Shown piece after piece: positions 33,948-56,324 of a DNA stretch of 64,000 nt. The stretch spans positions 1,548-65,547 of the forward strand of contig JACPLN010000002.1 of assembly GCA_016186485.1 (NCBI GenBank), given 5' to 3'. The translations under genes and the position numbers were made by a program. Each line of letters starts with the position of its first letter. Position 1 is the stretch's first letter. Source of the DNA: Candidatus Nealsonbacteria bacterium. GTDB taxonomy: Bacteria; Patescibacteriota; Minisyncoccia; Minisyncoccales; UBA6532. The notes below the pieces were generated by a model that saw only the letters and a list, made by a program, of their open reading frames with translations, did not search any database and was not told the DNA's origin.

Positions 33948-35189
33948 ATGAAATTTGTTGCCGATTTTCATATCCATTCAAGGTTTGCCAGGGCCACATC
34001 AAAAGACCTTAACCTTGAGAATTTGGATAAATGGGCGAAAATCAAGGGAATAAAGGTTTTAGGCACGGGAGACTTTACCCATCCTTTGTGGTTTCAAGAA
34101 CTGAAAGAAAACCTAAGGCCCGCAGAACCCGGACTTTACTCTTTTAACGGCGGCGAGGCCAGATTTGTTCTGACATCGGAAATAAGCTGCATTTATTCAA
34201 AAAATAACAGGGTAAGGAAGATCCATGTGCTTTTGTTTGCCCCGAGTCTGGAGACGGCAGATAAAATAAACGCAAAGCTTGGCTGGATCGGAAACTTAAA
34301 ATCAGACGGCAGGCCCATTCTGGGGCTGGACGCAAAAGAGCTGGCAAAAATCGTTTTTAATATTTCTGAAGATTGCCTTGTTGTACCGGCTCACGCCTGG
34401 ACTCCTTGGTTTTCCATTTTCGGCTCAAAATCCGGATTTGATTCAATTGAAGAGTGTTTTGAAGAGTATTCAAAATATATTTATGCCATTGAGACCGGTC
34501 TTTCGTCGGATCCTGCAATGAATTGGCGGCTTTCGGCGCTTGATAAAATAACCCTCATATCAAACAGCGATTGCCACTCCGGTCCGAAGATGGGCAGAGA
34601 AGCCAATGTTTTTGACACAGAGCTTTCCTATTCGGGAATCAGGAACGCAATAAAAGAAAAAGATCCTCAAAAATTCTTATATACCATTGAGTTTTTCCCT
34701 GAGGAGGGGAAATATCATTACGACGGCCACCGCCTTTGTAATATAAGCTTAAAGCCGGAAGATTCAAAAAAGTACAATAATCTTTGCCCGGTTTGCGGAA
34801 AACACTTGACTATAGGGGTTTTGAACAGGGTAGAGGAGCTGGCTGACAGGCCAGACGGCTTTAAACCGGAAGGGGCCATTCCTCAAAAGAGCTTGATTCC
34901 TCTCTCAGAAATTATTGCGGATGTTTTGGGCGTGACTCCGGGGACAAAACAGGTAGATAAAGAATATAAAAATCTTATTGAGAAACTTGGTACCGAACTG
35001 AATATTCTTTTAGACATCACGGAAGGAGACCTAGCTTCTGCCACTTTGCCAGAAATTGCCGAAGGTATTTTGAGGGTGAGGAAAAGAGAGGTATTTATTG
35101 AGCCTGGCTACGACGGCGTTTACGGTAAAATTAAGATTTTCTCCAAAGAAGAACAAAAAAAGCCCATTCGCCAAAAGACCCTTCTCTAA
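33948..35189 (+). CDS. Endonuclease Q family protein (PHP domain plus zinc finger)
   Basis: ADFHIHSRFARATSK...VLGTGDFTHPLW, PAHAWTPW, SNSDCHS, the zinc finger CPVCG, and C-terminal PGYDGVYGKIKIF. By eye it is collinear with archaeal EndoQ (recalled from memory). Confidence 0.7.
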   Translation: MKFVADFHIHSRFARATSKDLNLENLDKWAKIKGIKVLGTGDFTHPLWFQELKENLRPAEPGLYSFNGGEARFVLTSEISCIYSKNNRVRKIHVLLFAPSLETADKINAKLGWIGNLKSDGRPILGLDAKELAKIVFNISEDCLVVPAHAWTPWFSIFGSKSGFDSIEECFEEYSKYIYAIETGLSSDPAMNWRLSALDKITLISNSDCHSGPKMGREANVFDTELSYSGIRNAIKEKDPQKFLYTIEFFPEEGKYHYDGHRLCNISLKPEDSKKYNNLCPVCGKHLTIGVLNRVEELADRPDGFKPEGAIPQKSLIPLSEIIADVLGVTPGTKQVDKEYKNLIEKLGTELNILLDITEGDLASATLPEIAEGILRVRKREVFIEPGYDGVYGKIKIFSKEEQKKPIRQKTLL

Positions 35190-35703: not shown

Positions 35704-36720
35704 TCAAGCCTTCCAGGATACCTTGTTTTCCTCAATTAAAAATTTTCCATTGATAAATTTTTCAATGACCCATATATTCGTTTGACAGTGCTTTGTAATT
35801 TCAGAAACCGTAATCTGGCTTTTGCCCTTGACCAAGGCCAGGTAGGGTAAGATTTGGTCAGCTAAATTTTTATCCAAACAGGCGCCGCTTTTTTGTTCTT
35901 TTAGAAGCGCCAAAGCGGCTTCTTTTCCGATATCTTCGGCTCTTTTTCCTAATTTTCCCAGATTGTCTGTGCCGATTACGGTGTTCCCAAACTCGGCTAT
36001 TAGGCAAATTTGGCTGCCGGGATTTTGGGCTTGGTAATACTCAACTTTTTCTTCAAGGGGCAGTTTCAGTTTCCCCAATATTTCTCTTACCCCAGCCAGC
36101 TGCCTTTCAGCAATATTTTTATTTTTAAGGACTTCTGACGCACCGGAAAGGGCTAGGATTTTTTTAAGGTCTCCTCGGGCAGTAAGATTAATTTTCTTCA
36201 GTTGGGAAGGGAAAATTTTTACTTCCATTTTAGCTCCCCCCTCGGGATAGCAGCCTCTCTTTATAATATTAATTTCTATTTTTGCCCCCATCTTCTCTAA
36301 GACCTTTAGAAATACATACTTAAAATAGTTTATAGTTGGAGAAAAGAAGGTGTCTGTCGCTCCTCCATCAAAACTGATTTCCGCCGCTTTTGGCGAAAAA
36401 AGAGCGGGGGGAATTAATGTTTGCAAAATCAGGGTTATGCTTGCCGCCGTTAGAATTTTGACGGAGGTCTGTCCTCCGTAATCTTGGCCGGGGTAGAATT
36501 TAATATCTTGAGAGCCGAGTTCGTCGCCTTCCAGACGCCCAGAGCATAGCTGCGACAGAGCTTTAATTCCTAGAAGATGCTGATTTGCAAGGCCAGGATT
36601 CGGTCTGTTTTTCCTGATATTAAAAACCCGGCAAGGTTTTTTTGTAATTGCCGAAAGCGCCAAGGCTGTTCTCAAAATCTGCCCGCCCCCTTCAAGATAT
36701 GAGCCGTCAATTTCTATCAT
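35704..36720 (-). CDS. rtcA: RNA 3'-terminal phosphate cyclase RtcA
   Basis: MIEIDGSYLEGGGQILRTALALSAITKKPCRVFNIR and NPGLANQHL. The start is taken at ATG 36720; the ORF-track N-terminal extension is hydrophobic junk. Confidence 0.88.
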   Translation of the reverse strand: MIEIDGSYLEGGGQILRTALALSAITKKPCRVFNIRKNRPNPGLANQHLLGIKALSQLCSGRLEGDELGSQDIKFYPGQDYGGQTSVKILTAASITLILQTLIPPALFSPKAAEISFDGGATDTFFSPTINYFKYVFLKVLEKMGAKIEINIIKRGCYPEGGAKMEVKIFPSQLKKINLTARGDLKKILALSGASEVLKNKNIAERQLAGVREILGKLKLPLEEKVEYYQAQNPGSQICLIAEFGNTVIGTDNLGKLGKRAEDIGKEAALALLKEQKSGACLDKNLADQILPYLALVKGKSQITVSEITKHCQTNIWVIEKFINGKFLIEENKVSWKA

Positions 36721-36780
36721 ATTTATTAAATATAATACAAAAGGATTGACACTCATAGGGATAGATATAAAGTAAATAAG

Positions 36781-37197
36781 GTGAGTCAGATGGGAAATCC
36801 CGATAGAAATGAAGGTTTGTCCCTGGGAGACTATGTAAATCTTACCATAGGCGCATCTTGCTGGAATTGCGAGAATCATGATGGCGGTTGGGAGGTTAAG
36901 GGATTTGATAAGAAACAATGGCTGTATTATCAATGCAAGAAATGCGGATATCAAACCTCATTTGATAAGTTGGGAGTTCCGAGGAATAAGCCGCCATGCT
37001 ACGGACACTACTGGGAAGTCGCTCCTAATTTGAGAAATTTGAAGACAAGAGGCTGCGTAGGAATAGACGGTCTAATAAATTGTCCTTATTGGACATTAAG
37101 CAAAGGCGGTTGCCCGATGGCTGGGAAATTACCGAAAATAGTAAATATCCCGGAGGAAAGAACCGTTAATCAAAGGCACCAAGTGTTCCAACAATAA
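36781..37197 (+). CDS. Hypothetical cysteine-rich protein (zinc-ribbon-like CWNC...CKKC)
   Basis: A GTG at 36781 or ATG at 36790, with ten Cys including CxxC pairs. It is divergent from rtcA and followed by a good terminator. Confidence 0.5.
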   Translation: MSQMGNPDRNEGLSLGDYVNLTIGASCWNCENHDGGWEVKGFDKKQWLYYQCKKCGYQTSFDKLGVPRNKPPCYGHYWEVAPNLRNLKTRGCVGIDGLINCPYWTLSKGGCPMAGKLPKIVNIPEERTVNQRHQVFQQ

Positions 37198-37205
37198 AAA
37201 TAAAA

Positions 37206-37242
37206 GGAAGAAAACTAAAATTTCTTCCCCCTTTTATTTTTT
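37206..37242 (+). terminator. Rho-independent terminator
   Basis: An 8-bp stem GGAAGAAA/TTTCTTCC with a 7-nt loop, then CCCTTTTATTTTTT. Confidence 0.65.
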
Positions 37243-37258
37243 AATTAGGGCTGTGGAT

Positions 37259-37287
37259 TTGTTGATATTTCTTGCCGATGTTATTAT
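37259..37287 (+). promoter_or_regulatory. Candidate promoter of the RNR operon (TTGTTG-17 nt-TATTAT)
   Basis: Hexamers at 37259-37264 and 37282-37287, about 37 nt upstream of the nrdJ ATG. Confidence 0.35.
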
Positions 37288-37323
37288 AAGATAACATCTA
37301 TTGAAAAAGAGATTTTTTATTTT

Positions 37324-39639
37324 ATGATCCAAAAAATTCCTTTTAAAAACGTAACCAAAAGGGACGGAAGATTAGTTCCTTTTGACCAGGCCAGAATTAC
37401 CGAGGCCATTAAAAAAGCGATACAAGCAAGCCAGGAGGGAAATTTAGAAAAAGACCCAGAAAGAATTTCCGACAAAGTAGTGCAGGTTTTGATAAAGAAA
37501 TATCCTTCCACCCACAGTCCGCACATTGAAGAAATCCAGGATATGGTTGAGGAAACGCTCATTCTTTTGGATTTTCCAAAAACCGCCAAGTCCTATATTC
37601 TTTACAGAAACCAAAGGGCCCAGCTGAGAGAAAAAGGAAAAATAGTTCCTGGAAGAGTTAAGGAATTAGTTCAAAAAAGCAAAAGTTATTTTAGAAACAA
37701 ACTCGCCGAGTTTATTTATTACAGATCTTATTCCAGGTGGATAGAAAGCGAAGGCAGGCGCGAAACCTGGATTGAGACCGTTGATAGATTCGTTGATTTC
37801 ATGAAAGAAAGGCTGGAGAAAAAGTTTAGCGAAGCAGAATATGAGAATATTCGTCAGGCAATTTTGAATCAGGAAGTAATGCCGTCAATGAGATTGGTTT
37901 GGTCGGCCGGAAAAGCGGCCAAGGCCACAAACGTTTCAGCATACAATTGCAGTTTTATTGCTCCCAGCCAAATAAGGGATTTTGCCGAAATAATGTATCT
38001 TTCAATGTGCGGGGCCGGAGTAGGATTTTCCGTAGAATCTCAGACTATTCAGCTGCTTCCAATAATCAAGCGCCAGACCGGCGCTGTTTTGCCGACCCAC
38101 GTTATTGAAGACAACAAAGAGGGCTGGGGAAATGCTTTGATTGCCGGGATGACGGCCTGGTATCAGGGCAAAGACATAAATTTCGATTTTTCAAGGTTGA
38201 GACCGGCTGGCGCGAGATTGAATACTATGGGCGGAAGAAGCTCGGGGCCAGAACCATTGCGTTCTTTGCTTGATTTTACCAGAGCAAAAGTTTTAAGCAG
38301 GCAGGGAAAAAGGATTTCTAATTTGGACGCCCACGATATAATTTGCAAAATAGGGGAATTGGTTGTGATGGGAGGAGTAAGAAGAACGGCCCTTATTTCT
38401 CTTTCCGATCTTGATGATCTTGAAATGAGAGACGCTAAAAGAGGGCAGTTTTACATAGAGTATCCATATCGGTCAATGGCAAACAACTCCGCAGTTTATA
38501 TGGAGAAGCCAAACTCAATTCAATTTTTAGACGAGTGGCTGGCTTTATCCAAGAGCGGAAGCGGAGAGCGGGGAATTTTTAACAGAGGCGGATTAAAGGC
38601 TCAGCTTCCGGAACGGCGCTGGAAAAACTTTGAAAAATACTGGCAGAGGGCGGGCACAAATCCGTGCGGAGAGATAATATTGAGGTCAAAAGAGTTCTGC
38701 AATCTAACAGAAGTTGTTGCCAGGCAGGAAGATACGGAGGAAACCTTATTGAAAAAAATAGAGATTGCCTCAATCTTGGGAACTTATCAATCAACCCTTA
38801 CAGACTTCCCTTATATTTCCAAAGATTGGAAGAAAAATTGCGAAGAAGAAAGGCTTCTTGGTATTTCAATCACCGGCCAGTGGGATTGCAAAGCAGTGAG
38901 GAACAGAGCTACTTTGAGAAAGCTAAAAGAAAGGGCGCTTGAGGTCAACAGAATTTATGCCAGGCGTTTTGGCATTAATGCATCGGCCGCAGTAACTTGC
39001 GTGAAGCCAAGCGGCACAGTATCTAATCTCGTAGACTCAGCTTCCGGAATGCATCAAAGATATTCTCCTTATTACATAAGGAGAATAAGGATATCTGCCA
39101 CGGATCCGCTTTTTCACATGCTAAAAGATCAAAAATTTCCTTTCATTTATCCTGAAGTTGGCCAAACCGCAGATTCAGCGACCACTTTTGTATTGGAGTT
39201 TCCGGTAGCCTCGCCAAAGAATTCCATTTTCCGCAATGATTTAACAGCAATTGAACAATTGGAGCACTGGAGGATGGTTAAAGAGAATTACACAGAGCAC
39301 AATCCTTCGGTTACTATTTCTGTTGGTGAGGACGAATGGATTAAAACCGCCCACTGGCTTTATGAAAATTGGGATATTTTGGGAGGACTGTCTTTCTTGC
39401 CCAGATCAAAGCATGTTTACAGATTGGCCCCATACGAAGAAATAAATGAAGATCGTTATAAGGAAATGGTTTCTCAAATGCCGGACATCGATTTTTCGCA
39501 AATTATTATTTACGAGAAAGAAGACGAAACTACGGGAGCCAAAGAGTTAGCATGCGTTGGGGGATTATGCGAGATTGATCTTGAAGAAGGAAGTCTCCCT
39601 TCGGCAATCCCTTCGTCCTCGTCTTCATCAGAAGAATGA
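37324..39639 (+). CDS. nrdJ: Class II (adenosylcobalamin-dependent) ribonucleotide reductase with N-terminal ATP-cone
   Basis: ATP-cone VTKRDGRLVPFDQARITEAIKKA, YRSYSRW...GRRETW, active-site loop GTNPCGEI, and the C-terminal redox tail ACVGGLCE. Confidence 0.88.
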   Translation: MIQKIPFKNVTKRDGRLVPFDQARITEAIKKAIQASQEGNLEKDPERISDKVVQVLIKKYPSTHSPHIEEIQDMVEETLILLDFPKTAKSYILYRNQRAQLREKGKIVPGRVKELVQKSKSYFRNKLAEFIYYRSYSRWIESEGRRETWIETVDRFVDFMKERLEKKFSEAEYENIRQAILNQEVMPSMRLVWSAGKAAKATNVSAYNCSFIAPSQIRDFAEIMYLSMCGAGVGFSVESQTIQLLPIIKRQTGAVLPTHVIEDNKEGWGNALIAGMTAWYQGKDINFDFSRLRPAGARLNTMGGRSSGPEPLRSLLDFTRAKVLSRQGKRISNLDAHDIICKIGELVVMGGVRRTALISLSDLDDLEMRDAKRGQFYIEYPYRSMANNSAVYMEKPNSIQFLDEWLALSKSGSGERGIFNRGGLKAQLPERRWKNFEKYWQRAGTNPCGEIILRSKEFCNLTEVVARQEDTEETLLKKIEIASILGTYQSTLTDFPYISKDWKKNCEEERLLGISITGQWDCKAVRNRATLRKLKERALEVNRIYARRFGINASAAVTCVKPSGTVSNLVDSASGMHQRYSPYYIRRIRISATDPLFHMLKDQKFPFIYPEVGQTADSATTFVLEFPVASPKNSIFRNDLTAIEQLEHWRMVKENYTEHNPSVTISVGEDEWIKTAHWLYENWDILGGLSFLPRSKHVYRLAPYEEINEDRYKEMVSQMPDIDFSQIIIYEKEDETTGAKELACVGGLCEIDLEEGSLPSAIPSSSSSSEE

Positions 39640-40157
39640 TATTTATATTTACCGGAAACGGCAAGGGGAAAACCACCTCGGCCATAGGACAGGCGGTAAG
39701 GGTTATTGGCCAGGGCGAGAGAGCGGCAATAATCCAATTTATCAAAAGCAGGAAATGGGCCGCTGGCGAAGATATTGCCCTTAAAGTTTTTGGTAAAAAC
39801 TTAAAATTTATAAAAGGAGGCAAGGGTTTTGTCGGCATTATGGGAGATAGGCTGCCAAAATCTCTTCACAAAAAGGCAGCCGAAAAAACCTTGAGAAAAG
39901 CGAAGAAGGAGATTTTCTCAAAAAAATACGGCCTTGTTGTTTTAGACGAAATTAATGTTGCCCTTTCTTTAAAACTTGTTAAACTAAATGAGGTATTGAA
40001 AATTATAAAGATGGCACCGAAGGAAACAGATCTTATTTTAACCGGTCGGGACTCGCCCAAAACTTTAATAAAAGAGGCGGATTTAGTAACCGAATTTAAG
40101 GAGATAAGACACCCATTTAAGAAAGGGGTGTGGGGAAAAAAAGGAAGAGAATATTAA
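39636..40157 (+). CDS. cobA: ATP:cob(I)alamin adenosyltransferase (CobA/CobO/BtuR family)
   Basis: MIFIFTGNGKGKTTSAIGQAVR, IIQFIKS and VLDEINVAL. A 4-nt ATGA overlap joins it to nrdJ. Confidence 0.85.
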   Translation: MIFIFTGNGKGKTTSAIGQAVRVIGQGERAAIIQFIKSRKWAAGEDIALKVFGKNLKFIKGGKGFVGIMGDRLPKSLHKKAAEKTLRKAKKEIFSKKYGLVVLDEINVALSLKLVKLNEVLKIIKMAPKETDLILTGRDSPKTLIKEADLVTEFKEIRHPFKKGVWGKKGREY

Positions 40158-40161
40158 TTAT

Positions 40162-40428
40162 ATGGCAGAAAAAATATACAAAGTGAAAGTCATAAGGGAT
40201 CTTTGTATTGGAGCCGGGTCTTGCGAGGTTATTTCCCCGAAGGTTTTTAAGGTTGACGAAGAGGCAAAGGCAATAATTTTGGGCCAGGGGACGAACCCTG
40301 ATGAAAACGGTTTTGTTATGGCAGCCAAAGATACCGCAGAGAATGTTATTGCCGCAGCTAAATCTTGCCCGACTTTTGCCATCATTGTTTTAGATGAGAC
40401 CGGGAAACAAATTTGGCCGGAACTATGA
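40162..40428 (+). CDS. Small ferredoxin with three cysteines (CxxAxxC...CP; 3Fe-4S-type pattern)
   Basis: VIRDLCIGAGSCEVISPKVF...AAKSCPTFAI. The protein contains only 3 Cys. Confidence 0.75.
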   Translation: MAEKIYKVKVIRDLCIGAGSCEVISPKVFKVDEEAKAIILGQGTNPDENGFVMAAKDTAENVIAAAKSCPTFAIIVLDETGKQIWPEL

Positions 40429-42152
40429 TTGATTTAACTTGGAAAATCGGAGGGGAAGCCGGGTATGGAATTATGTCTTCCGGATTGATTTTTGCCAAAG
40501 CCGCCTTGAGGTCGGGCTATTTTATTTATGATTTGAACGAATACCCGTCTCTGATAAGAGGAGGGCACAATACCTATACTGTTAGGATTTCTGATGGAGA
40601 AATTTATTCCCAAGTAAAACCAGTTAATTTATTAGTTGCCCTAAATCAAAACGCCATTGATTTTCATAAGGACGAATTATCTCAAGGCGCAGCCTTGATA
40701 GTAAACACCGATAAGGTAGACCAAGAAAAAATAAAGATTTCTAAAGGCGTTAATCTTTTCCCTGTTCCTTTAATTAAGCTGGCAAAAGAAGTCGATGGGA
40801 AAGAAATAATGATGAATACCGTAGCCATCGGAGCCTCAATGGCATTATTAAAAGGAGATTTTGAGGTGTTGACCGAAGTCATAAAGGATTTTTTTAAGGG
40901 AAAAGAAAAAATAGAGGAACTAAATATTAAAGCGGCAAAACTGGGTTTTGACTTCATAAAAAACAACTTTAACAAAATTGAGTTTAGTTTTTCCCTGCCA
41001 AAGAAAAACAGGGATAATGGGATGCTGTTGACTGGCAACGATGCTATTGCCTTAGGAGCGGTGAAAGCAGGCCTCAAGTTTTTTGCCTGCTATCCGATGA
41101 CGCCGATAAATTCTCTGCTTGCCTATTTTGCAAAACAGGGGCCTGAACTGAAAATAGTTTACATTCAGCCGGAAGACGAGATCTCCGGAATTAATATGGC
41201 GATTGGAGCGTCTTTTGCCGGGGCAAGGTCAATGGTTGCAACTTCCGGCGGAGGTTTTTCTTTAATGACAGAAGCTTTTGGATTAGCCGGGATAACAGAA
41301 ACACCATTAGTTATTATTGAAGGGCAAAGGCCGGGGCCCGCCACCGGTCTTCCGACCTGGGGGGCCCAGGGAGACCTGAGATTTGTTTTACATGCCGCTC
41401 AGGATGATTTTCCGAGAATCGTTTTAGCCCCCGGGGACCCGGAGGAATGTTTTTGGCTTACAATAGAGGCTTTCAATTTGGCTGAAATCTATCAAGCACC
41501 GGCAGTTATTTTGACAGATAAGCATTTGGGAGAAAGTCACCAGAGCGTTGCCGATTTTGAAGATTCTAAAGCAAAAATAGACAGAGGGTTCATGCTTTCA
41601 AAAGACGATCAGCTTAAAGAATATAAGAGATACCAGTTTACTGAAAACGGTATTTCTCCAAGGGGGATTCCCGGCAGAAAAGGATTTACATTCAGAGCCA
41701 ATAGCGACGAACACAATGAATACGGTTTTTCCAATGAGGAAGCCGAGGTCAGGAAAAATCAGGTTGAAAAAAGAATGAGAAAGATGGAAACGCTTGCTAA
41801 AAAAATTCCAAACCCAAATATTTATGGCCCGGATAAAGCAGAATTTACTCTTATCGGCTGGGGTTCTGCAAAGGGGCCAATTCTTGAAGCCCAAAAAGCG
41901 CTAGAAACAGAAAATGTAAAGACAAACTTTTTGCATTTAACATATATGAATCCGTTCCCGTCGCAATTCGTAGCTGATTTTTTGAAAGGCAAAAAGAATG
42001 TTTTAATGGTTGAACAAAACTCAACCGCTCAGTGCGCAGGCCTGATTAGAGAAAGAACAGGAATTACAATTAAGAACCATCTTTTGAAATACGATGGCAG
42101 GCCTTTCTTTCCGGAAGAAATTGCCGAAAAAGTTAAGGAACTATGGAAATAG
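40425..42152 (+). CDS. korA: 2-oxoacid:ferredoxin oxidoreductase alpha subunit (gamma-alpha fusion)
   Basis: An N-terminal gamma-like domain (GGEAGYGIMSSG...YPSLIRGGHN) followed by an alpha domain (GNDAIALGA...CYPMTPIN...GRPGPATGLPT). ATGA overlap with the ferredoxin gene. Confidence 0.85.
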   Translation: MIDLTWKIGGEAGYGIMSSGLIFAKAALRSGYFIYDLNEYPSLIRGGHNTYTVRISDGEIYSQVKPVNLLVALNQNAIDFHKDELSQGAALIVNTDKVDQEKIKISKGVNLFPVPLIKLAKEVDGKEIMMNTVAIGASMALLKGDFEVLTEVIKDFFKGKEKIEELNIKAAKLGFDFIKNNFNKIEFSFSLPKKNRDNGMLLTGNDAIALGAVKAGLKFFACYPMTPINSLLAYFAKQGPELKIVYIQPEDEISGINMAIGASFAGARSMVATSGGGFSLMTEAFGLAGITETPLVIIEGQRPGPATGLPTWGAQGDLRFVLHAAQDDFPRIVLAPGDPEECFWLTIEAFNLAEIYQAPAVILTDKHLGESHQSVADFEDSKAKIDRGFMLSKDDQLKEYKRYQFTENGISPRGIPGRKGFTFRANSDEHNEYGFSNEEAEVRKNQVEKRMRKMETLAKKIPNPNIYGPDKAEFTLIGWGSAKGPILEAQKALETENVKTNFLHLTYMNPFPSQFVADFLKGKKNVLMVEQNSTAQCAGLIRERTGITIKNHLLKYDGRPFFPEEIAEKVKELWK

Positions 42153-43003
42153 ATAAATTTAAAACCGAAGAAAAAGTTACTTGGTGCCAAGGGTGCGGAA
42201 ATTTTGGCATTTGGGTTGCTTTAAGACAGGCATTTTTAGAGCTTGGCTGGGGGCCGGAAGATGTTTTGTTGGTTTACGGGATTGGCTGCCATGGCCATAT
42301 GATTAATTATTTGAATAATTATGGTTTTGACGCTCTCCATGGCAGAGGGCTCCCTTTGGCTCAAGGAGCAAAGCTTGCTAATAAAAATCTTAATGTAATA
42401 GTGATAGCGGGTGACGGCGACCAGTTTGGAGAAGGAGGGAACCACTTTATCCATGCGGCTAGGCGCAACCTAGACATAACTTGCATTATCCACGACAACC
42501 AAATTTACGGTTTAACCGTTGGCCAAACTTCCCCGACCTCTGAAAAAGGGTTTGTTACCAAGTCAACTCCTCATGGCGCGCCAGATCAGCCCGTTAACCC
42601 AATTTCCCTTTCTTTGGCGTCAGAGGCAAGCTTTGTTGCCAGAGGGTTTTCCGGCGATGTCAAACACCTGACTAAGCTTTTTGTGGACGGATTAAAGCAT
42701 AAGGGTTTTTCCGTAATTGATGTTTTGCAGCCCTGCGTAACGCTTAATCATTTAAATACTTTCCAGTATTTTTTCCAAAGAGTTTATAAGCTGGATGAGG
42801 CCGGCCATAATCATAATGACAAGATTTCCGCTTTCACAAAATCTTTTGAGTGGGGAGACAAAATACCAATAGGCCTTTTCTATAAAGAAGAAAGGCCGAT
42901 TCTTGAAGAGTTGCTGCCTCAGTTAAAACCCGAGGAGAAGTCGCTTGTTGATCAGGATATATACAATATAGAAATAAAAAGTCTTTTTGAAGAATTTAAA
43001 TGA
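42143..43003 (+). CDS. korB: 2-oxoacid:ferredoxin oxidoreductase beta subunit (TPP-binding)
   Basis: WCQGCGNFG cluster ligands and the TPP motif AGDGDQFGEGGNH; it overlaps both neighbours. Confidence 0.85.
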   Translation: MEIDKFKTEEKVTWCQGCGNFGIWVALRQAFLELGWGPEDVLLVYGIGCHGHMINYLNNYGFDALHGRGLPLAQGAKLANKNLNVIVIAGDGDQFGEGGNHFIHAARRNLDITCIIHDNQIYGLTVGQTSPTSEKGFVTKSTPHGAPDQPVNPISLSLASEASFVARGFSGDVKHLTKLFVDGLKHKGFSVIDVLQPCVTLNHLNTFQYFFQRVYKLDEAGHNHNDKISAFTKSFEWGDKIPIGLFYKEERPILEELLPQLKPEEKSLVDQDIYNIEIKSLFEEFK

Positions 43004-43929
43004 TATACGATTTGATAATTGTGGGCGGCGGGCCGGGGGGAGCCGCAGCCGGAGTTTATGCCGCTAGAAAAAGAATAAAAAGCCTTTTGATTACCAAAGA
43101 TTGGGGGGGCCAATCCAACGTTTCTGTTGAAATTCAAAACTGGATTGGCGTTGTTTCAATGTCGGGCCATGAAATGATGAAAAAAATAGAGGAGCATGTT
43201 AAGGCGTACGCAGACAATATTCTGGCGTTTGACGAGGGATCGCTGGTTGCAAAAATTTCTCAAAAAAACCCCATTTTTGATTTAGAAACCGATAAGGGCA
43301 AAAAATACCAAGCTAAATCCATTATTGTTGTTTCGGGATCACGCCGCAGGAAGTTAGATGCGCCGGGTTCAAAAGAATTTGAGGGCAAAGGCGTAGTTTA
43401 CTGCGCCTCTTGCGACGCCCCATTGTTTAAAGATAAAGAGGTTGCGGTAGTTGGCGGGGGAAACGCCGGTTTTGAATCTGCCCAGCAATTGCTGGCTTAC
43501 GCCGCTAAAATATATATTTTAGAATACGGCGAAGATTTTAAAGCAGATGAGGTAACCAGGGAAAACGTTATGAAAGACAAAAGAGTGGTGCCCATAACTA
43601 TGGCAGAAATCACGGAGATTAAGGGAAATAAGCTTGTCAACGCTTTGTCTTATAAAAACAGGAAAACAGGAGAAAATAAGGAATTATCTGTTCAGGGAGT
43701 TTTTGTTGAGATAGGATCAATTCCAAACAGCGATTTTGTAAAAGGTTTAGTGGAACTTAATAAGCATGGAGAGATAGCCATTGACCACAAAACCTGCCGA
43801 ACTTCAGTTGAAGGAATTTGGGCAGCCGGAGATGTTACTGACAGCCCCTATAAGCAAAATAATATTTCAATGGGAGATGCAGTAAAAGCCCTTGAAGATT
43901 TATACGTCTGGCTACAAAAGAATAAATAA
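43000..43929 (+). CDS. Thioredoxin-reductase-like flavoprotein, AhpF C-terminal-module type, lacking the NADPH HRR motif
   Basis: FAD motif VGGGPGGAAAG, redox CASC, second dinucleotide fold VVGGGNAGFE followed by ILEYGEDFKAD instead of HRRxxxR, and AAGDVTDSPYKQ. Confidence 0.85.
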   Translation: MIYDLIIVGGGPGGAAAGVYAARKRIKSLLITKDWGGQSNVSVEIQNWIGVVSMSGHEMMKKIEEHVKAYADNILAFDEGSLVAKISQKNPIFDLETDKGKKYQAKSIIVVSGSRRRKLDAPGSKEFEGKGVVYCASCDAPLFKDKEVAVVGGGNAGFESAQQLLAYAAKIYILEYGEDFKADEVTRENVMKDKRVVPITMAEITEIKGNKLVNALSYKNRKTGENKELSVQGVFVEIGSIPNSDFVKGLVELNKHGEIAIDHKTCRTSVEGIWAAGDVTDSPYKQNNISMGDAVKALEDLYVWLQKNK

Positions 43930-43955: not shown

Positions 43956-44075
43956 AGGTTATCCATTGCTTTTAGTTGGGTGATGCCTATTGGTTTATCG
44001 CCTCCTAACAAAGCAGTGGGAGGGAAAGGGGAGGGGAAACAAAAACCCCGTACTTAGTGCGAGGTTTTTGTTTTT
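43956..44075 (+). ncRNA. Candidate ~120-nt structured small RNA (unclassified)
   Basis: It lies between the orphan extended -10 and a weak terminator (AACCCCG...CGAGGTT plus TTTTTGTTTTT). It has a 10-bp helix CCATTGCTTT/AAAGCAGTGG (43963-43972 / 44010-44019) enclosing GGTGAT/ATCGCC, then a G-rich tract. No match to any RNA family I can recognise. Confidence 0.3.
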
Positions 44076-44078
44076 GTG

Positions 44079-44154
44079 CCCCTTAGTAGATTTTTGACAA
44101 GGTTTTCTGAAGAAAACCTAATATCGCGAAGCGGGTCAAAAATTCACTACGGGG
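44079..44154. repeat. Long-stem hairpin repeat, copy A (76 nt)
   Basis: Outer 20-nt arms CCCCTTAGTAGATTTTTGAC / GTCAAAAATTCACTACGGGG, inner hairpin AGGTTTTC-TGAA-GAAAACCT, and unpaired AATATCGCGAAGCGG. Confidence 0.85.
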
Positions 44155-44164
44155 TGGGGAGAAA

Positions 44165-44296: not shown

Positions 44297-44304
44297 GCGT
44301 TAAA

Positions 44305-44366
44305 CCCCGTAGTAGAAATTGGACTTGCTAACGCAAAATGTAATTTGTCCAATTTTCACTACAGGG
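44305..44366. repeat. Long-stem hairpin repeat, copy B (62 nt, variant with compensated stem)
   Basis: Arms CCCCGTAGTAGAAATTGGAC / GTCCAATTTTCACTACAGGG, with the inner hairpin TTGC-TAAC-GCAA. Confidence 0.8.
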
Positions 44367-44396
44367 TAAAGGTCGAAAAATGAATAAAAAAACAAA

Positions 44397-44781: not shown

Positions 44782-45498
44782 ATGGATCTCTACAGCGTAA
44801 GAATTAAAGATAAAAAAGAAATCGCCGACAACACCCTCCTTTTTGTATTAGAAAAGCCGGAAAACTTTAAGTTTCGGCCCGGGCAGTTTTTAATGTTAAT
44901 TCTGCCCCAACTTGAAGAAAGCGTTGAAAGGGGCAACTCAAGGCCAATGTCCATTGCTTCCCCGCCATACCAAGAAGAAATTTATATCGCCATAAGAAGA
45001 GGCATAACTCCATTCAAAAAAAAGCTGGAGTCGCTGAATCCCGGCGAAGAAGTAAAAATAAGGGGGCCATACGGCGTATTCGTCCTGTATGACGATCTCA
45101 TAAACACAATAGTTTTTTTAGCCGGCGGGATTGGAATTACTCCGGTAAGAAGCATAATTTTGCAGTCACAATTTGAGAATAAATCCGGCCGATTTTTCCT
45201 TTTTTATTCCAACAACCTTCCAAAAGACGCAGCTTTTTTAGAAGAATTGGGATCCATAAAAGGCATTGATTATAAGCTTGTTTCTACTATGACAAAACCG
45301 GAAGGATTGCCCCAGGATTGGGAAGGAGAAAAAGGTTTTATTGATTTTGAAATGATTAAGAAATATGTTTCCGACGTCAAAGAACCGATTTACTATGTTG
45401 TCGGCCCGCCGGGGTTTGTTGAGGCAATGAAAACAGCGCTGGTTTTAGCGGGGATAGATAAGGCCAAAATAAAGGTTGAAGAATTTAAGGGTTTTTGA
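44782..45498 (+). CDS. Ferredoxin-NADP reductase-like FAD/NAD(P)-binding oxidoreductase
   Basis: RPGQFLML, the FAD motif RPMSIAS, and the NAD motif LAGGIGITPVRS; 238 aa with no fused iron-sulfur or heme domain. Confidence 0.8.
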   Translation: MDLYSVRIKDKKEIADNTLLFVLEKPENFKFRPGQFLMLILPQLEESVERGNSRPMSIASPPYQEEIYIAIRRGITPFKKKLESLNPGEEVKIRGPYGVFVLYDDLINTIVFLAGGIGITPVRSIILQSQFENKSGRFFLFYSNNLPKDAAFLEELGSIKGIDYKLVSTMTKPEGLPQDWEGEKGFIDFEMIKKYVSDVKEPIYYVVGPPGFVEAMKTALVLAGIDKAKIKVEEFKGF

Positions 45499-45510
45499 TA
45501 AAATAATTAA

Positions 45511-45915
45511 ATGAGTTATCATCCTCTGTTGTTTACTTTAGCCGCAATAGGGATCTCAGAAAGCGTTTATTTGATCAGGACAAGAATGGCTGGCCAGAGA
45601 CCGGTTTGCGTTATTGGAAAAGACTGCCATAAGGTTTTGGAATCTGAATACAGAAAGATTTTCGGCATTGATAACGATACTCTCGCCTTGATTTTTTATA
45701 TAATTGTTTCTCTAACCACCGCAATTTTAGTTTTAGAAGCGGGTCCGGTTGTTTTTATCCAAAGATTGGCCAAGATTCTTATTCTAACTGGCGCAGGTTT
45801 TTCTGTTTTAACCATTTTTGTTCAATGGCGGCTAATTAAAGCTTGGTGTTTCTGGTGTTTAATGGCTTCCGCAACGGTATTTTTGATGGCAATAACAATT
45901 TTAATGATGAGCTGA
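45511..45915 (+). CDS. Vitamin K epoxide reductase (VKOR) family membrane protein
   Basis: Four TM helices, the loop cysteines CVIGKDC, and active-site CFWC in the last helix. Confidence 0.8.
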   Translation: MSYHPLLFTLAAIGISESVYLIRTRMAGQRPVCVIGKDCHKVLESEYRKIFGIDNDTLALIFYIIVSLTTAILVLEAGPVVFIQRLAKILILTGAGFSVLTIFVQWRLIKAWCFWCLMASATVFLMAITILMMS

Positions 45916-45922
45916 CATTATT

Positions 45923-46282
45923 ATGAAAACAGCGTCTTTCCATATTTTAAGAGTAGGTACGGCAATTACCTTTTTATGGATAGGCATTTTAATTTTGAAA
46001 GATCCCCAGCTCTGGGGCGGATTTATACAATCCTGGGTTTCCGATCTTTTGCCAATTAGTACTGGTAACATCGCGCTGGGAGCCGCATTTTTTGATATTT
46101 TTGTCGGGGTTTTGCTTTTGGTAGATTACTTTGCCTGGCTAGCCGCTCTTTTGGGGGCAATTCATATCTTTTTGGTTCTTTTTGTTTCCGGCATCAACGC
46201 TATAACCATTAGAGATATCGGGCTTTTAGCCGCAGCCGTTGCTTTATTTATTGATAGCTATAAACAAAAAACAAATGGCTAA
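45923..46282 (+). CDS. Small integral membrane protein (possibly DoxX-like)
   Basis: Four hydrophobic helices; the family assignment is tentative. Confidence 0.6.
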   Translation: MKTASFHILRVGTAITFLWIGILILKDPQLWGGFIQSWVSDLLPISTGNIALGAAFFDIFVGVLLLVDYFAWLAALLGAIHIFLVLFVSGINAITIRDIGLLAAAVALFIDSYKQKTNG

Positions 46283-46967
46283 ATTTACTTTTACCCTAGA
46301 TACGAAATATTTTATTCCATTAGCCGTTGTTGCCGCAGGCGCAATGATTGCTATTGCAATTTTGTATACGGGAGGAGTCAAAATTGCTGCTGTAAAACCA
46401 GAAGTTGGAATAGCGGAATTAAAGACAGGCGGCGAACCTTACCTGGGAAACCCCGATGCAAAAGTAAAAATTGTTTATTATGGGGACTTCCAGTGCCCAT
46501 TTTGCAAGCGCTTTGAAAGCGTTGCCCTGCCGGAGATTAAATCTAGGTATCTTGATAGCGGCAAAGCCGTGTTTTATTTCAAGAATTTTCAATTTTTGGG
46601 CCAAGATTCCGTTACAGCCGGCATAGCCGGAGAGTGTGCTATAAAGCAGTCAAAAGGAAACCTTGATTCTTACTGGAAATTACACAATGCCATGTTTGAA
46701 AAGCAGGACGCTGAAAATGCCGGTTTTGGTTCTGCAGATGACATAAAGAATCTGGTTAGAGAACTTAATTTAGGAATAAATTTGGCTGAATTTGACAAAT
46801 GCCTTGATTCAAGAGAAACGGAAGAAGAGGTTTTAGCGGATACTACCGAAGGCAGGAACGATGGCGTGACGGGCACTCCTGCTAACTTTATTAATGGAAA
46901 GCTTATTCCCGGCGCCCAGGCGGCTTCCGTATTCGTAGCTGAAATTGAAAAATCTTTTAGCCAATAG
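46275..46967 (+). CDS. DsbA-family thiol:disulfide oxidoreductase, membrane anchored
   Basis: An N-terminal anchor followed by the thioredoxin-fold active site YYGDFQCPFCKRF. The start is taken at ATG 46275. Confidence 0.8.
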   Translation: MAKFTFTLDTKYFIPLAVVAAGAMIAIAILYTGGVKIAAVKPEVGIAELKTGGEPYLGNPDAKVKIVYYGDFQCPFCKRFESVALPEIKSRYLDSGKAVFYFKNFQFLGQDSVTAGIAGECAIKQSKGNLDSYWKLHNAMFEKQDAENAGFGSADDIKNLVRELNLGINLAEFDKCLDSRETEEEVLADTTEGRNDGVTGTPANFINGKLIPGAQAASVFVAEIEKSFSQ

Positions 46968-48416: not shown

Positions 48417-49571
48417 TTGGAAGATGTTGTGGTTGTTGATGCCTTAAGGACGCCGATTGGAAAATTCGGCGGAATGTTTAAGGATATCTCGGCCCCAAAT
48501 CTTGGGGCAATAGTAATAAAAGAACTGTTGGGCAGACTTTCTTTGACGGTAACGCCAAAAGATATAGATTTAGTAATCATGGGCCAGGTTTTACAGGCAG
48601 GCCAAGGCCAGGCCCCATCCAGGCAGGCAGCGCTGTATGGCGGCCTCCCTTATTCTTGCAGAGCTTTGACCATAAGAGAGGAGTGCGGTTCTTCTTTAGC
48701 AGCTATCTCTATGGGGGATTCCATGATAAAGGCGGGGAAAGCCGATGTCTTAATTGCCGGCGGAATGGAAAATATGAGCCAGGCTCCGCATCTTTTGAAG
48801 CGCTCTTTCGGGAAGAATTTTGGTCACCAAGAATTGTTAGACAGCATGATCTATGATGGCCTCAAAAACGCCTATAATAAATATTTAATGGGCCGCATTA
48901 CGGAAATAGTCGCTAAGAGATACGGCGTCACCAGAAAAGAACAAGACGAATTTGCCCTATTGAGTTTCAAAAGGGCAATGAAAGCCGCAAGCGAAGGAAT
49001 ATTTAGGGCAGAAATGATTCCAATGCAGGGAAGCGATCAGGGGATTCGCAATACTTCTTTGGAGGAATTAGGAAAATTAAAGCCGGTATTTTTAGACAAG
49101 GGCACAATAACGGCAGGCAACGCCTCGCAGATTTCAGACGGGGCAGCCGCTCTTGTTTTAATGTCTGGGAAAAAAGCGCAAGATCGCGGCATAAAACCGC
49201 TGGTAAGGGTGGTCGGTGAAGCAACCAATGCTTTGTCGCCCCAACATTTCCCGCTTGCTCCCATTGGCGCAATAAGAAAATTGCTGAAGAAGTCAGGCTT
49301 AACGATAAAAGACATAGACCTTTTTGAGGTTAATGAAGCTTTCGCGGCCGTCCCAATTATAATAATGAGGGAAATCGGTATTCCCCAAAACAAGCTTAAT
49401 ATCTATGGCGGAGCGATTGGGGGATTGGGTCATCCCCTAGGAGCGTCAGGAGCCAGGATTTCAACTACCCTTATTAATGCTCTTGTTTCCAATAATTATC
49501 GCTATGGAGTATGCGCGATATGCATAGGCGGCGGCCAGGCGATTGCTATTTTGTACGAAAACATTTTCTAG
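48417..49571 (+). CDS. Acetyl-CoA C-acetyltransferase (thiolase)
   Basis: DALRTPIGKFGG, the active-site Cys context REECGSSLAA, NEAFAAV, GGAIGGLGHPLGASGARI and CIGGGQAIA. TTG start. Confidence 0.88.
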   Translation: MEDVVVVDALRTPIGKFGGMFKDISAPNLGAIVIKELLGRLSLTVTPKDIDLVIMGQVLQAGQGQAPSRQAALYGGLPYSCRALTIREECGSSLAAISMGDSMIKAGKADVLIAGGMENMSQAPHLLKRSFGKNFGHQELLDSMIYDGLKNAYNKYLMGRITEIVAKRYGVTRKEQDEFALLSFKRAMKAASEGIFRAEMIPMQGSDQGIRNTSLEELGKLKPVFLDKGTITAGNASQISDGAAALVLMSGKKAQDRGIKPLVRVVGEATNALSPQHFPLAPIGAIRKLLKKSGLTIKDIDLFEVNEAFAAVPIIIMREIGIPQNKLNIYGGAIGGLGHPLGASGARISTTLINALVSNNYRYGVCAICIGGGQAIAILYENIF

Positions 49572-49631
49572 CCAGCGGCGCATTTGCCGCTTTTTTATTT
49601 GGGTGTTATCATTGGACATGGTTCGTTAAAA

Positions 49632-50363
49632 ATGAATAATAGCAGCCAGAAAACAAAAGATTTGTTAAATAGGGCTGTTTCGGGCAATTCAGCCGCCGGA
49701 GCAAGATTGATGACAATGGCGGAGAACAATAATCGCGCCCTATTGAAGCTGTTAAAAGAGTTGAACATGCCAGCAGCTCTTGTACTAGGGATTACCGGGG
49801 CCGGGGGTTCTGGCAAAAGCACTTTGGTTAACAAAATAGTTGGTTTGCTGAGAAAAAAAGGAAAGCGTGTCGGCGTTATATTATGCGATCCCACCAGCAG
49901 TCAAAGCGGAGGAGCAATTTTGGCAGATAGAATACAGCTCGTTGACCATCTTCCTGATAATCATGTTTTTATCAGAAGCATGGCCACCAGAGAATCTTTG
50001 GGCGGAATACCGGAAACATTACCTTGGATCATTAAGATAATGAAGCTGATGGGGTTTGACATAATTTTGGTTGAGACGATTGGCGTTGGTCAGGATCAAA
50101 CTTTGATTGAAAGAATGGTTGATTTGGTGATTGTAGTAGTGGGCTATGGCTACGGCGACGATATACAGCTTATCAAGAGCAGCGTTTTGGAATCGGGAGA
50201 TATAATCGTCGTGAATCAGAGGGCAAGCTGGACGGGAGACAAGGCTATCAGCGATCTTAAATTCCTTTTTAATAATGCCGATGAAAAGAAGAAAATCCTG
50301 GCATTAGATGCCGCAAACGGAAAAGGAGTAGATGAGCTCATAGAAGAAATAATGCCGAAATAA
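49632..50363 (+). CDS. MeaB/ArgK-like G3E-family P-loop GTPase, short form with an altered NKxD motif
   Basis: GITGAGGSGKST, DPTSSQSGGAILADR, FIRSMATRESLGG and ETIGVGQDQ. NKxD is replaced by VNQRA and the C-terminal extension is missing. The start is taken at ATG 49632. Confidence 0.75.
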   Translation: MNNSSQKTKDLLNRAVSGNSAAGARLMTMAENNNRALLKLLKELNMPAALVLGITGAGGSGKSTLVNKIVGLLRKKGKRVGVILCDPTSSQSGGAILADRIQLVDHLPDNHVFIRSMATRESLGGIPETLPWIIKIMKLMGFDIILVETIGVGQDQTLIERMVDLVIVVVGYGYGDDIQLIKSSVLESGDIIVVNQRASWTGDKAISDLKFLFNNADEKKKILALDAANGKGVDELIEEIMPK

Positions 50364-51367: not shown

Positions 51368-51416
51368 CCTTTTCCACTAACAATAAGATTATACACCAAA
51401 CATTAATTTATGTCAA

Positions 51417-56321: not shown

Positions 56322-56324
56322 AGG

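Follow-up and report, generated by a model that had tools for sequence, protein, structure and literature searches.

Within a 64-kb stretch of one contig of Candidatus Nealsonbacteria (hereafter the window), we analysed an operon that combines a class II ribonucleotide reductase (RNR) with a CobO-type corrinoid adenosyltransferase, a ferredoxin, a two-subunit 2-oxoacid:ferredoxin oxidoreductase (OFOR) and a flavoprotein. The host is a tiny-genome groundwater bacterium, placed in the Parcubacteria/Patescibacteria by the NCBI taxonomy, and the RNR, OFOR alpha and flavoprotein sequences were 100% identical to NCBI proteins of a Candidatus Nealsonbacteria metagenome-assembled genome (89-kb contig), the RNR being annotated there as ribonucleoside-triphosphate reductase. 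Negative results on neighbouring genes hold for the 64-kb stretch. An earlier note on this DNA had described six co-oriented genes with small gaps or overlaps at positions 37324-43929. All six open reading frames (ORFs) and their junctions were confirmed at these coordinates on the forward (+) strand, the six family assignments were upheld by profile matches, and every motif quoted (GTNPCGEI, CVGGLC, GNGKGKTTSA, CxxAxxC...CP, the thiamine pyrophosphate (TPP) motif and CASC) was found.

Layout and boundaries of the operon

ATGA-type overlaps of 4 nt were present at the RNR/CobO, ferredoxin/OFOR alpha and OFOR beta/flavoprotein junctions, the two OFOR genes overlapped by 10 nt, and a gap of 4 nt lay between CobO and the ferredoxin gene. 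A hairpin with T/A runs on either side (37206..37228), terminator-like on both strands, was found between the end of the upstream ORF (37197) and the RNR start; it marks the upstream boundary of the operon and is followed by an AT-rich leader of about 95 nt. At the other end, a long imperfect hairpin followed by a T-run (44026..44084, + strand; inverted repeat I1 with 29-nt arms, terminator-like site at 44049-44061) lies about 100 nt past the last stop codon and is the probable operon terminator. The next ORF begins at 44397, about 470 nt after the last gene. Within the cluster, terminator-like matches showed no excess (12 versus 10.9 +/- 3.3 expected from shuffled sequence) and promoter-like consensus matches occurred at the chance level given by shuffled sequence. 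Internal promoters or terminators, which the earlier note had named as elements that might split the cluster, were therefore rejected. The six genes are laid out as a single, apparently translationally coupled transcription unit. No Rfam family, cobalamin riboswitch included, was detected upstream of the RNR gene when the whole window was scanned at gathering thresholds, and none was found in 37150-37400 at E<=1. No match to an NrdR box with <=3 mismatches was found anywhere in the window.

The RNR and the adenosyltransferase

The first gene (37324..39639, + strand) encodes a 771-residue class II RNR. Profile searches identified an ATP-cone (PF03477, 84 bits) and an RNR_Alpha domain. The protein scored 268.9 bits against TIGR02505, the model for the monomeric ribonucleoside-triphosphate reductase (RTPR); this is under the equivalog cutoff of 340.05, and TIGR02505 was still the best RNR model by far. 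The best solved structure was that of Lactobacillus leichmannii RTPR (1L1L). Cys209 (NCSF), Cys448 (in TNPCGEI, which starts at residue 445), Cys459 and Cys744/749 (CVGGLC, residues 744-749) each aligned with an RTPR cysteine, the counterparts in 1L1L being NNCWF, GTNPCGEI, EPCNL and the C-terminal CEGGAC. We take the aligned RTPR residues to be Cys119, Cys408, Cys419 and Cys731/736, respectively. The catalytic and shuttle cysteines were invariant across 18 homologues. By these alignments the enzyme is a divergent subfamily of the monomeric RTPR type with an added N-terminal ATP-cone and, as a class II enzyme, is predicted to depend on adenosylcobalamin (AdoCbl). Pfam scans of the window ORFs revealed no NrdB/NrdF or NrdG-like gene, and no second RNR class was present among the window ORFs scanned with Pfam and NCBIfam. 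Several RTPR-type homologues in the databases carry inteins (P0087, P0090 and P0095).

The second gene (39636..40157, + strand) encodes a CobA/CobO/BtuR-type ATP:cob(I)alamin adenosyltransferase of 173 residues, CobO, which matched PF02572 with 177.5 bits (cutoff 25.7) and, marginally, TIGR00708 (168.5 bits, cutoff 167.75). It aligned with residues 31-196 of Salmonella enterica CobA (4HUT/1G5R), with the P-loop conserved (GNGKGKTT, residues 7-14) and the first ~30 CobA residues absent. In S. enterica CobA, four-coordinate Co(II) arises when the lower ligand is displaced by the Phe91/Trp93 pair. The corresponding CobA segment GFTWE reads GFVGI in CobO, so that the Phe is retained and Trp93 is replaced by Gly; the longer KGGKGFVGI segment was invariant among six CobOs from the candidate phyla radiation (CPR). 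Considering the families of the two proteins and the adjacency of their genes, we strongly infer that the RNR encoded directly upstream is served by CobO, which would adenosylate cobalamin that has been salvaged or damaged in catalysis. The notion that AdoCbl is made for this enzyme, or remade after abortive turnover, is well grounded in the roles of both families. A scan of viral contigs gave no CobO above 41% identity and no relevant context.

A three-cysteine ferredoxin and a two-subunit OFOR

The third gene (40162..40428, + strand) encodes an 88-residue ferredoxin that matched Fer4_15 and Fer4_13 above their cutoffs and was closest in structure to the single-cluster ferredoxins 1ROF, 6MCW and 1IQZ. 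It has exactly three cysteines, at positions 15, 21 and 69 (CIGAGSC...CP), and the pattern CIGAxxC..CP was invariant in the four cluster-linked ferredoxins. CXXA/GXXC(X)nCP is the motif of [3Fe-4S] ferredoxins, which usually have potentials of -85 to -203 mV, reaching down to -340 mV in M. marinum (PMC6237146). The protein is thus [3Fe-4S]-type by motif and not necessarily low-potential; the low potential given to this carrier in the earlier note was an assumption.

The fourth and fifth genes encode the OFOR. The alpha subunit, a gamma-alpha fusion of 575 residues (40425..42152, + strand), passed TIGR03710 with 668.5 bits (cutoff 482.75), contained POR (gamma), POR_N and PFOR_II domains and had a YPMTP motif. 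Counted from the ATG, its 575 residues agree with the NCBI protein P0121; a start further upstream, at the TTG at 40413, would give 579. The beta subunit (42143..43003, + strand; 286 residues; TPP_enzyme_C and PFO_beta_C) passed TIGR02177 with 345.6 bits (cutoff 261.9) and had a GDGD...N TPP motif and four cysteines (Cys15/18/49/198) that fit one [4Fe-4S] site. No ORF for a delta subunit with a two-cluster Fer4 domain was present in the operon. The structures nearest to OFOR alpha, 5B46 (322 bits) and 6N2N (315 bits, full length), were about equally similar; 6N2N is deposited as a 'Pyruvate flavodoxin/ferredoxin oxidoreductase domain protein'. We take 5B46 to be the S. tokodaii OFOR and 6N2N to be the 2-oxoglutarate enzyme of Magnetococcus marinus. 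OFORs of the TIGR03710 type are widespread, and homologues 52-55% identical were found in many archaea and bacteria.

The flavoprotein resembles the C-terminal part of AhpF

The last gene (43000..43929, + strand) encodes a 309-residue flavoprotein disulfide reductase (Pyr_redox_2) that resembles the AhpF C-terminal part and low-Mr TrxR. It scored 311 bits against the AhpF model (TIGR03140, cutoff 502.9), matching only profile positions 213-504, and 277.7 bits against TRX_reduct (TIGR01292, cutoff 343.45). In the PDB, AhpF was its best match (1HYU/1FL2, 232 bits), followed by Sulfolobus solfataricus TrxB-3 (202), E. coli TrxR (about 149) and 6GNA/6GNC/6GND (100-108). The protein aligned end to end with AhpF residues 213-515 and carries the motifs CASC (135-138) and GGGNAG (152-157). 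Its LEYGEDFKAD segment lined up with LEFAPEMKAD in AhpF and, in the NADPH-type S. solfataricus TrxB-3, with IHRRDTFKA; the HRRxxxR motif is not kept. Among 120 homologues, CxxC was present in 100%, GGGNAG in ~100%, the acidic residue in 105 and Glu175 in 104; source databases call homologues 'AhpF' or 'NADH-dependent peroxiredoxin subunit F'. These features point to an NADH-type disulfide reductase, its preference for NADH being deduced from the retained motifs.

Ferredoxin-linked, pyridine-nucleotide-independent members of the TrxR family are known, such as the clostridial FFTR, which we take to be the protein in 6GNA-6GND. The earlier note had proposed that ferredoxin re-reduces the RNR via the flavoprotein. 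The sequence speaks against this: the protein is far closer to AhpF than to the 6GNA-type reductases (232 versus 108 bits) and the NADH-type NAD(H) site is kept in apparently working form, so the flavoprotein should take electrons from NADH and not from OFOR or ferredoxin. An FFTR-like enzyme was accordingly rejected as a candidate for this gene. Because the N-terminal double thioredoxin-fold domain of AhpF is missing, the flavoprotein would need a separate disulfide carrier.

As already noted, thioredoxin and NrdH are absent from the operon, and this absence extends to the whole window. A motif scan of the window for thioredoxin, NrdH or glutaredoxin returned only the zinc finger of Fpg, and tblastn of the window with E. 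coli TrxA, NrdH and Grx1 (query sequences entered by hand) gave nothing significant. The only thioredoxin-fold protein of the window is DsbA-like (46239-46967), with an N-terminal hydrophobic segment, and looks membrane-anchored. The same queries detected a thioredoxin gene directly after the RNR in locus L004 and, near the RNR of L002, L047 and L065, NrdH-like genes. Partners of this kind therefore exist in the group, and are presumably encoded elsewhere in this genome.

Gene order in related genomes

Gene neighbourhoods were compared in three samples: 80 GTDB species representatives with RNRs 61-72% identical to that of the window (+/-10 kb where available); seven distinct contexts anchored on OFOR alpha, phylogenetically related and with nearest homologues 57-68% identical; and 80 JGI metagenome loci anchored on CobO among the matches listed, mostly with distant CobOs (37-54% identity). 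In the RNR-anchored sample, CobO was near in 4 species (L001, L002, L025 and L045), OFOR in one (L079; divergent, 43% identical) and the ferredoxin in none. The CobO-anchored sample (among the matches listed) contained no such ferredoxin, one distant OFOR match (23% identity) and three further RNR-CobO pairs (L092, L093 and L104). The three closest RNR relatives with readable context (78-79% identical; L082, L083 and L084) all keep RNR-CobO, followed in L082 by G6PD-PGI-RpiB. In L084, the closest RNR relative, the order is RNR-CobO-flavoprotein-DsbA-like...superoxide dismutase (SOD), without ferredoxin or OFOR, and a 74% relative (L081) has the RNR alone. The pairing of RNR and CobO described in the window therefore recurs in relatives, namely in all the loci just listed as carrying it.

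Anchoring on OFOR alpha gave a different picture, since a class II RNR and/or CobO adjoined the OFOR in 4 of the 7 contexts. A class II RNR was directly or nearly adjacent in three, CobO in three and the same ferredoxin in three. L085 reads DsbA-SOD-NrdJ_Z(intein)-CobO-ferredoxin-OFOR alpha-OFOR beta-VKOR-flavoprotein-DUF1858. L086-88 have CDGSH-CobO-ferredoxin-OFOR alpha-OFOR beta, with FNR-like and DsbA-like genes divergent upstream and a flavoprotein gene 6 kb downstream. The order in L171 is SOD-ferredoxin-CDGSH-AhpC...NrdJ_Z-CobO-OFOR alpha-OFOR beta, the ferredoxin gene lying 4 kb upstream, and L172/173 contain NrdJ_Z-OFOR alpha-OFOR beta-DsbA-ResA-like. In L170, OFOR alpha stands alone with DUF1858-OFOR beta-flavoprotein 7 kb off, the contig of L089 begins at OFOR alpha with a SUF operon alongside, and L174-176 contain OFOR alpha-OFOR beta alone. 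Three lineages, with CobOs no more than 57-65% identical, retain the order CobO-ferredoxin-OFOR alpha-OFOR beta with overlapping or nearly abutting genes. Synteny thus depends on which gene serves as anchor: this four-gene order holds across lineages, and most relatives of the RNR lack CobO and OFOR. The earlier note had also asked whether the OFOR belongs to unrelated neighbours in relatives; over the seven loci this was not the case overall, L174-176 having the OFOR alone.

The RNRs of the related OFOR loci are of another type. Those of L085 (3730-7200), L171 (5199-7445) and L172 (5747-7978) passed the NrdJ_Z model TIGR02504 with 638, 661 and 633 bits (cutoff 400), the L085 gene being split by an intein (Intein_splicing and LAGLIDADG). 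Two non-orthologous RNRs, RTPR-like and NrdJ_Z, both AdoCbl-dependent by family, head the same cluster. That three OFOR loci carry this different RNR favours selection rather than inheritance alone. All four functions (adenosyltransferase, carrier, carrier reductase and AdoCbl-dependent client) are found in the window, L085 and L171; L086-88 carry three of them, without the client, and L172/173 the client and OFOR only. With random placement, the chance of finding the RNR gene in a 16-kb stretch of a ~0.8-Mb genome (size from L015 and L068) is ~2%, and the co-occurrence in 3 of 7 contexts corresponds to a binomial P of ~3e-4, a crude value from a small sample in which shared ancestry is ignored.

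Two further observations concern these loci. A small CDGSH-type (mitoNEET-like) Fe-S protein recurs by the cluster (L086 6915-7166, L171 3503-3697, L089 6984-7175); in L086-88 its gene overlaps the CobO start by 4 nt, and there is none in the window. In two distant metagenome contigs (L125 10001-11631 and L137 10001-11522), CobO (42%) is directly followed by a TrxR-like flavoprotein (31-35%), and the pairing of CobO with the flavoprotein may extend beyond the CPR.

Assembly of the operon

The RNR, CobO and flavoprotein of the window were closest to those of L084 (79, 76 and 69%), and the ferredoxin and OFOR subunits were closest to those of L085 and L086 (59-68%); the window CobO is only 57-65% identical to the other OFOR-linked CobOs. 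Given that L084 has RNR-CobO-flavoprotein without ferredoxin or OFOR, the six-gene operon appears to be a lineage-specific mosaic. On the simplest reading, ferredoxin-OFOR alpha-OFOR beta would sit between the CobO and flavoprotein genes of an L084-like operon. L085 is macro-syntenic with the window (PolX 69%, NUDIX 68%, MFS 52%, and L20). These shared flanks indicate that the two loci are homologous and that the type of RNR was exchanged in place while CobO-ferredoxin-OFOR was kept. Assembly of the same set of functions repeatedly favours a functional reason. A portable CobO-ferredoxin-OFOR unit may have evolved in a subclade of the Parcubacteria, in which 2-oxoacid oxidation directly pays for the reduction of Co(II) to Co(I) in coenzyme-B12 formation, and may, on at least two occasions, have become linked to different class II RNRs (RTPR- and NrdJ-type); we put this forward as possible rather than probable.

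A proposed electron supply for AdoCbl synthesis

Of the proteins encoded in the cluster, CobO alone has a known requirement for a one-electron donor; no flavodoxin was present among the window ORFs scanned (Pfam/NCBIfam), and the genes follow the order CobO-ferredoxin-OFOR. We therefore propose that electrons pass from OFOR to ferredoxin to CobO. The two-subunit OFOR would oxidise a 2-oxoacid (pyruvate or 2-oxoglutarate) and reduce the adjacent three-cysteine ferredoxin, which would donate a single electron to CobO-bound cob(II)alamin to yield cob(I)alamin, taking the role of flavodoxin for Salmonella CobA or of PduS for PduO. CobO would then produce AdoCbl for the RNR, and adenosylation would pull the uphill reduction forward. 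Separately, the flavoprotein would pass electrons from NADH to a thioredoxin-, NrdH- or glutaredoxin-like protein encoded elsewhere and from there to the CVGGLC pair of the RNR. That the operon is a module for supply and recycling of AdoCbl for the class II RNR, with OFOR-reduced ferredoxin as the one-electron donor of CobO, is the reading we prefer, tentatively and as one that falls slightly short of probable. The repeated grouping in relatives suggests a built-in electron supply for B12 activation. In agreement with such a carrier, the cofactors of PduS, at -150 and -262 mV, still support the reduction of cob(II)alamin to cob(I)alamin for adenosylation (PMC2982820).

Two parts of the scheme in the earlier note fared differently. 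The arm from OFOR through ferredoxin to CobO was kept as the best reading, and the arm from ferredoxin through the flavoprotein to the RNR was dropped on account of the flavoprotein sequence. The description of the operon as self-contained for the synthesis of deoxyribonucleoside triphosphates (dNTPs) likewise found no support in the 64 kb, where no thioredoxin-like acceptor, B12 uptake gene or flavodoxin was detected. The searches that the note had suggested, for thioredoxin/NrdH/glutaredoxin, other RNR classes and cobalamin uptake, found none within the window (for B12 transporter and uptake genes, among the ORFs scanned with Pfam/NCBIfam).

Several points weigh against the proposed hand-off. 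A Co(II)/Co(I) potential of -450 mV is quoted for the corrinoid substrate (PMC4083273), and characterised [3Fe-4S]-type ferredoxins, the type of this one by motif, lie well above it at -85 to -203 mV. Every electron-transfer step is deduced from gene neighbourhood. As CobO has neither an equivalent of Trp93 nor the N-terminal 30 residues of CobA, the formation and reduction of four-coordinate Co(II) may differ. An FNR-like reductase encoded nearby could instead reduce the ferredoxin from NAD(P)H. As to gene order, 76 of the 80 species with this RNR lack CobO within 10 kb and 79 lack OFOR; there are only seven OFOR contexts, and these loci are phylogenetically related. In L172/173, RNR and OFOR are adjacent without CobO or ferredoxin between them, which direct coupling of ferredoxin to CobO does not explain. 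The OFOR is alone in L174-176 and lies beside the SUF Fe-S assembly operon in L089, and in relatives the surrounding genes frequently have general redox or oxidative-stress functions (SOD, AhpC-type peroxiredoxin, DsbA-like, VKOR, CDGSH and DUF1858, together with ResA-like).

The gene-context points, from the RNR-OFOR adjacency of L172/173 onwards, also support the strongest rival, a redox/oxygen-stress island. Here OFOR and ferredoxin would form a general catabolic 2-oxoacid system that is co-regulated with the RNR, CobO and the flavoprotein, all being sensitive to oxygen or redox state, or stands beside them through inherited order, with no direct hand-off; the OFOR would give acetyl- or acyl-CoA and reduced ferredoxin for fermentation, and free reduced flavin or some other carrier would be the electron donor of CobO. 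The widespread TIGR03710 type of the OFOR and a thiolase, an acetyl-CoA user, 4.5 kb downstream in the window fit this explanation as well. It does not readily account for the strict CobO-ferredoxin-OFOR alpha-OFOR beta order in three lineages with CobOs 57-65% identical, nor for a cluster kept while its RNR was replaced by a non-orthologous AdoCbl-dependent type. Since L086-88 have the CobO-ferredoxin-OFOR unit without an RNR, the constant link is that of CobO/AdoCbl with OFOR and not with stress genes, and we consider the island explanation unlikely, if clearly ahead of the two that follow.

Should the MeaB-family GTPase encoded after the thiolase (PF03308, 180 bits; within 48417-50363) belong with CobO, the two might mainly serve an AdoCbl-dependent acyl-CoA mutase encoded elsewhere, the OFOR making its acyl-CoA substrate from a branched-chain or other 2-oxoacid and the adjacency of the RNR being secondary. 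MeaB-CobO adjacency is indeed common in unrelated CobO loci (L129, L140, L142, L147 and L168), and three enoyl-CoA hydratase genes lie near CobO-ferredoxin-OFOR in L086. However, no mutase or B12-binding domain protein was found among the window ORFs scanned or in related loci, and the MeaB-like protein scores 192 against a TIGR00750 cutoff of 241 and is encoded 9 kb away from CobO, whose own gene overlaps the stop codon of the RNR. Pairs of RNR and CobO are also found repeatedly where MeaB is lacking. All this makes the account very unlikely. Least likely of all, by a small step further, is that OFOR-reduced ferredoxin also drives the RNR, with the flavoprotein acting as a ferredoxin-dependent TrxR and the operon running on 2-oxoacid oxidation alone. 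The OFOR beta and flavoprotein genes do overlap by 4 nt, and they are adjacent in L170 and one gene apart in L085, but the protein matches AhpF far better than 6GNA/6GNC/6GND, keeps GGGNAG and LE(Y/F)xxxxKAD, and shares the Gly motif with ~100%, and the acidic residue with 105, of the 120 homologues.

Comparison with known systems

Every protein of the operon belongs to a known family; the arrangement resembles the Pdu and Fpr-FldA-CobA systems, with another carrier, another reductase and an RNR as client. The Fpr-FldA-CobA system of S. enterica also has a CobA/CobO-family transferase that needs a protein one-electron donor to form cob(I)alamin, and an FNR-like reductase gene lies near the window operon (44782-45498). 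The Salmonella carrier is a flavodoxin and its reductase an NADPH flavoenzyme, whereas here we propose a three-cysteine ferredoxin and a TPP/Fe-S 2-oxoacid oxidoreductase. The genes of the window operon are clustered with the client enzyme, and its CobO lacks the 30 N-terminal residues and Trp93 of CobA; cobA, fldA and fpr are unlinked in Salmonella. The Pdu metabolosome (PduS, PduO and PduGH with diol dehydratase) is similar in that one operon encodes an AdoCbl radical enzyme together with an adenosyltransferase and an Fe-S electron source for Co(II) to Co(I), both dedicated to it. It uses a PduO-type transferase and the NADH-dependent FMN/[4Fe-4S] protein PduS, in contrast to the CobA-type transferase and the OFOR with separate ferredoxin of the window, where the client is a ribonucleotide reductase and no reactivase or microcompartment genes are present. 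RACE/RACo and RamA are likewise dedicated Fe-S one-electron donors to Co(II) corrinoids, encoded beside their client. They act on protein-bound methyl-transfer corrinoids and are driven by ATP hydrolysis; the operon has no homologue of them, and the pull would come from adenosylation by CobO.

The L. leichmannii RTPR with thioredoxin and TrxR shares with the window system the active-site cysteines, the C-terminal Cx4C pair and a TrxR-family flavoprotein. The window enzyme differs in its ATP-cone and in its profile score (269 versus a cutoff of 340), no thioredoxin is encoded nearby, and the reductase is AhpF-like and of the NADH type rather than an NADPH TrxR. With AhpF, whose residues 213-515 were the top structural match (232 bits), the flavoprotein has CxxC and the NADH-type LExxxxxKAD in common. 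It is missing the N-terminal double thioredoxin-fold domain, and L171 is the only locus with an AhpC-type peroxiredoxin gene close to the cluster. Split AhpF-like TrxR systems that use NADH are known, for example the Thermotoga maritima TrxR with a glutaredoxin-like protein. Like the two-subunit OFORs 5B46 and 6N2N, the window pair consists of a gamma-alpha fusion and a beta subunit with TPP and one [4Fe-4S], has YPxTP and lacks delta; the known enzymes are part of central metabolism, whereas this pair sits between an adenosyltransferase/ferredoxin and a disulfide reductase. A full-text literature search, of incomplete coverage and hence no proof of novelty, returned no description of such an RNR-CobO-ferredoxin-OFOR cluster.

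To our knowledge, few physiological reductants of CobA-type transferases have been described, namely flavodoxin/Fpr in Salmonella, CobR in Brucella and free flavins, and we know of essentially no donor for anaerobes and organisms without flavodoxin. CPR bacteria, as far as we know, cannot make B12, and in many of them all dNTPs come from a B12-dependent RNR. Their reliance on other members of the community is directly tied to the way in which salvaged cobalamin is turned into the coenzyme and restored when turnover has been abortive. If our proposal is correct, the operon would provide a CobA-type adenosyltransferase with a reductant system driven by ferredoxin and OFOR, the first of its kind, and no other ribonucleotide reductase would be known to have a recharging system dedicated to its cofactor. 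The conserved CobO-ferredoxin-OFOR unit makes this a concrete hypothesis involving four small soluble proteins. If the link is one of co-regulation only, the locus would be an ordinary redox gene island. The NADH-type, AhpF-like nature of the TrxR-like protein of these organisms also constrains models of their thiol redox metabolism.

Other genes and elements of the window

Downstream of the operon lies a run of redox genes (44782-46967) for FNR-like, VKOR, DoxX and DsbA-like (CPFC) proteins. The first, outside the operon, encodes a 238-residue FNR-like FAD/NAD(P)-binding reductase (44782..45498, + strand; FAD_binding_6 and NAD_binding_1, with Fre/FNR-type NCBIfam matches). Homologues of this gene divergently adjoin CDGSH-CobO-ferredoxin-OFOR in L086-88 and lie 4 kb upstream of NrdJ-OFOR in L172/173; none was found in the 80 RNR-anchored background loci. 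The reductase might, speculatively, use NAD(P)H to reduce the ferredoxin or cob(III)alamin. Genes of the FNR-like, VKOR and DsbA-like kinds are found again next to the CobO/OFOR cluster in L085, L086-88 and L172/173, the DsbA-like one in L084 too. Further on, positions 48417-50363 encode the thiolase (TIGR01930, 424 bits) and then the short MeaB-family G-protein; MeaB proteins chaperone AdoCbl into acyl-CoA mutases. A P5C dehydrogenase gene is present in the window (21257-22915, minus strand), and a glutamate dehydrogenase gene lies beside the flavoprotein gene in L086 (17287-17737) and near OFOR in L171 (11511-11888). Conversion of glutamate to 2-oxoglutarate, feeding NAD(P)H and the OFOR substrate, is a speculative possibility.

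The gene directly before OFOR alpha in L170 has a counterpart in the window at 33948-35189, which encodes a PHP-like protein of the TIGR00375 family (70% identity). Just before the upstream hairpin ends a cysteine-rich 138-residue ORF (36781-37197) with several CxxC pairs, zinc-ribbon-like. Neither Pfam nor NCBIfam gave a match for it, and tblastn at E<=1e-5 retrieved nothing from the loci searched, which comprised all but the viral L177-L194. This putative ORF overlaps the opposite-strand RtcA ORF in the part added when a far-upstream TTG is taken as the start. RNA repair genes occur as an archease-RtcB tandem (23147-25495) and, 10 kb away, the RNA 3'-phosphate cyclase gene rtcA (35704-36954, minus strand).

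A structured palindromic element of 73-87 nt occurs in three intergenic copies (44075-44160, 44300-44372 and 51412-51498), two of them directly after the operon terminator. Its arms read CCCCGTAGTnnATTTTTGAC and GTCAAAAATTCACTACGGGG; the arm pattern gave 5 matches versus 0 expected, and the copies fold with -27 to -34 kcal/mol (z -4.8 to -7.9). It matched no Rfam family and could be a REP/MITE-like repeat or a small RNA. Finally, a tmRNA gene (55921-56792, minus strand; Rfam 146 bits) beside SmpB encodes an unusually glycine-rich tag peptide (ANLFSKAKSVFAAAFGGGGGGGLVPAYQIA).

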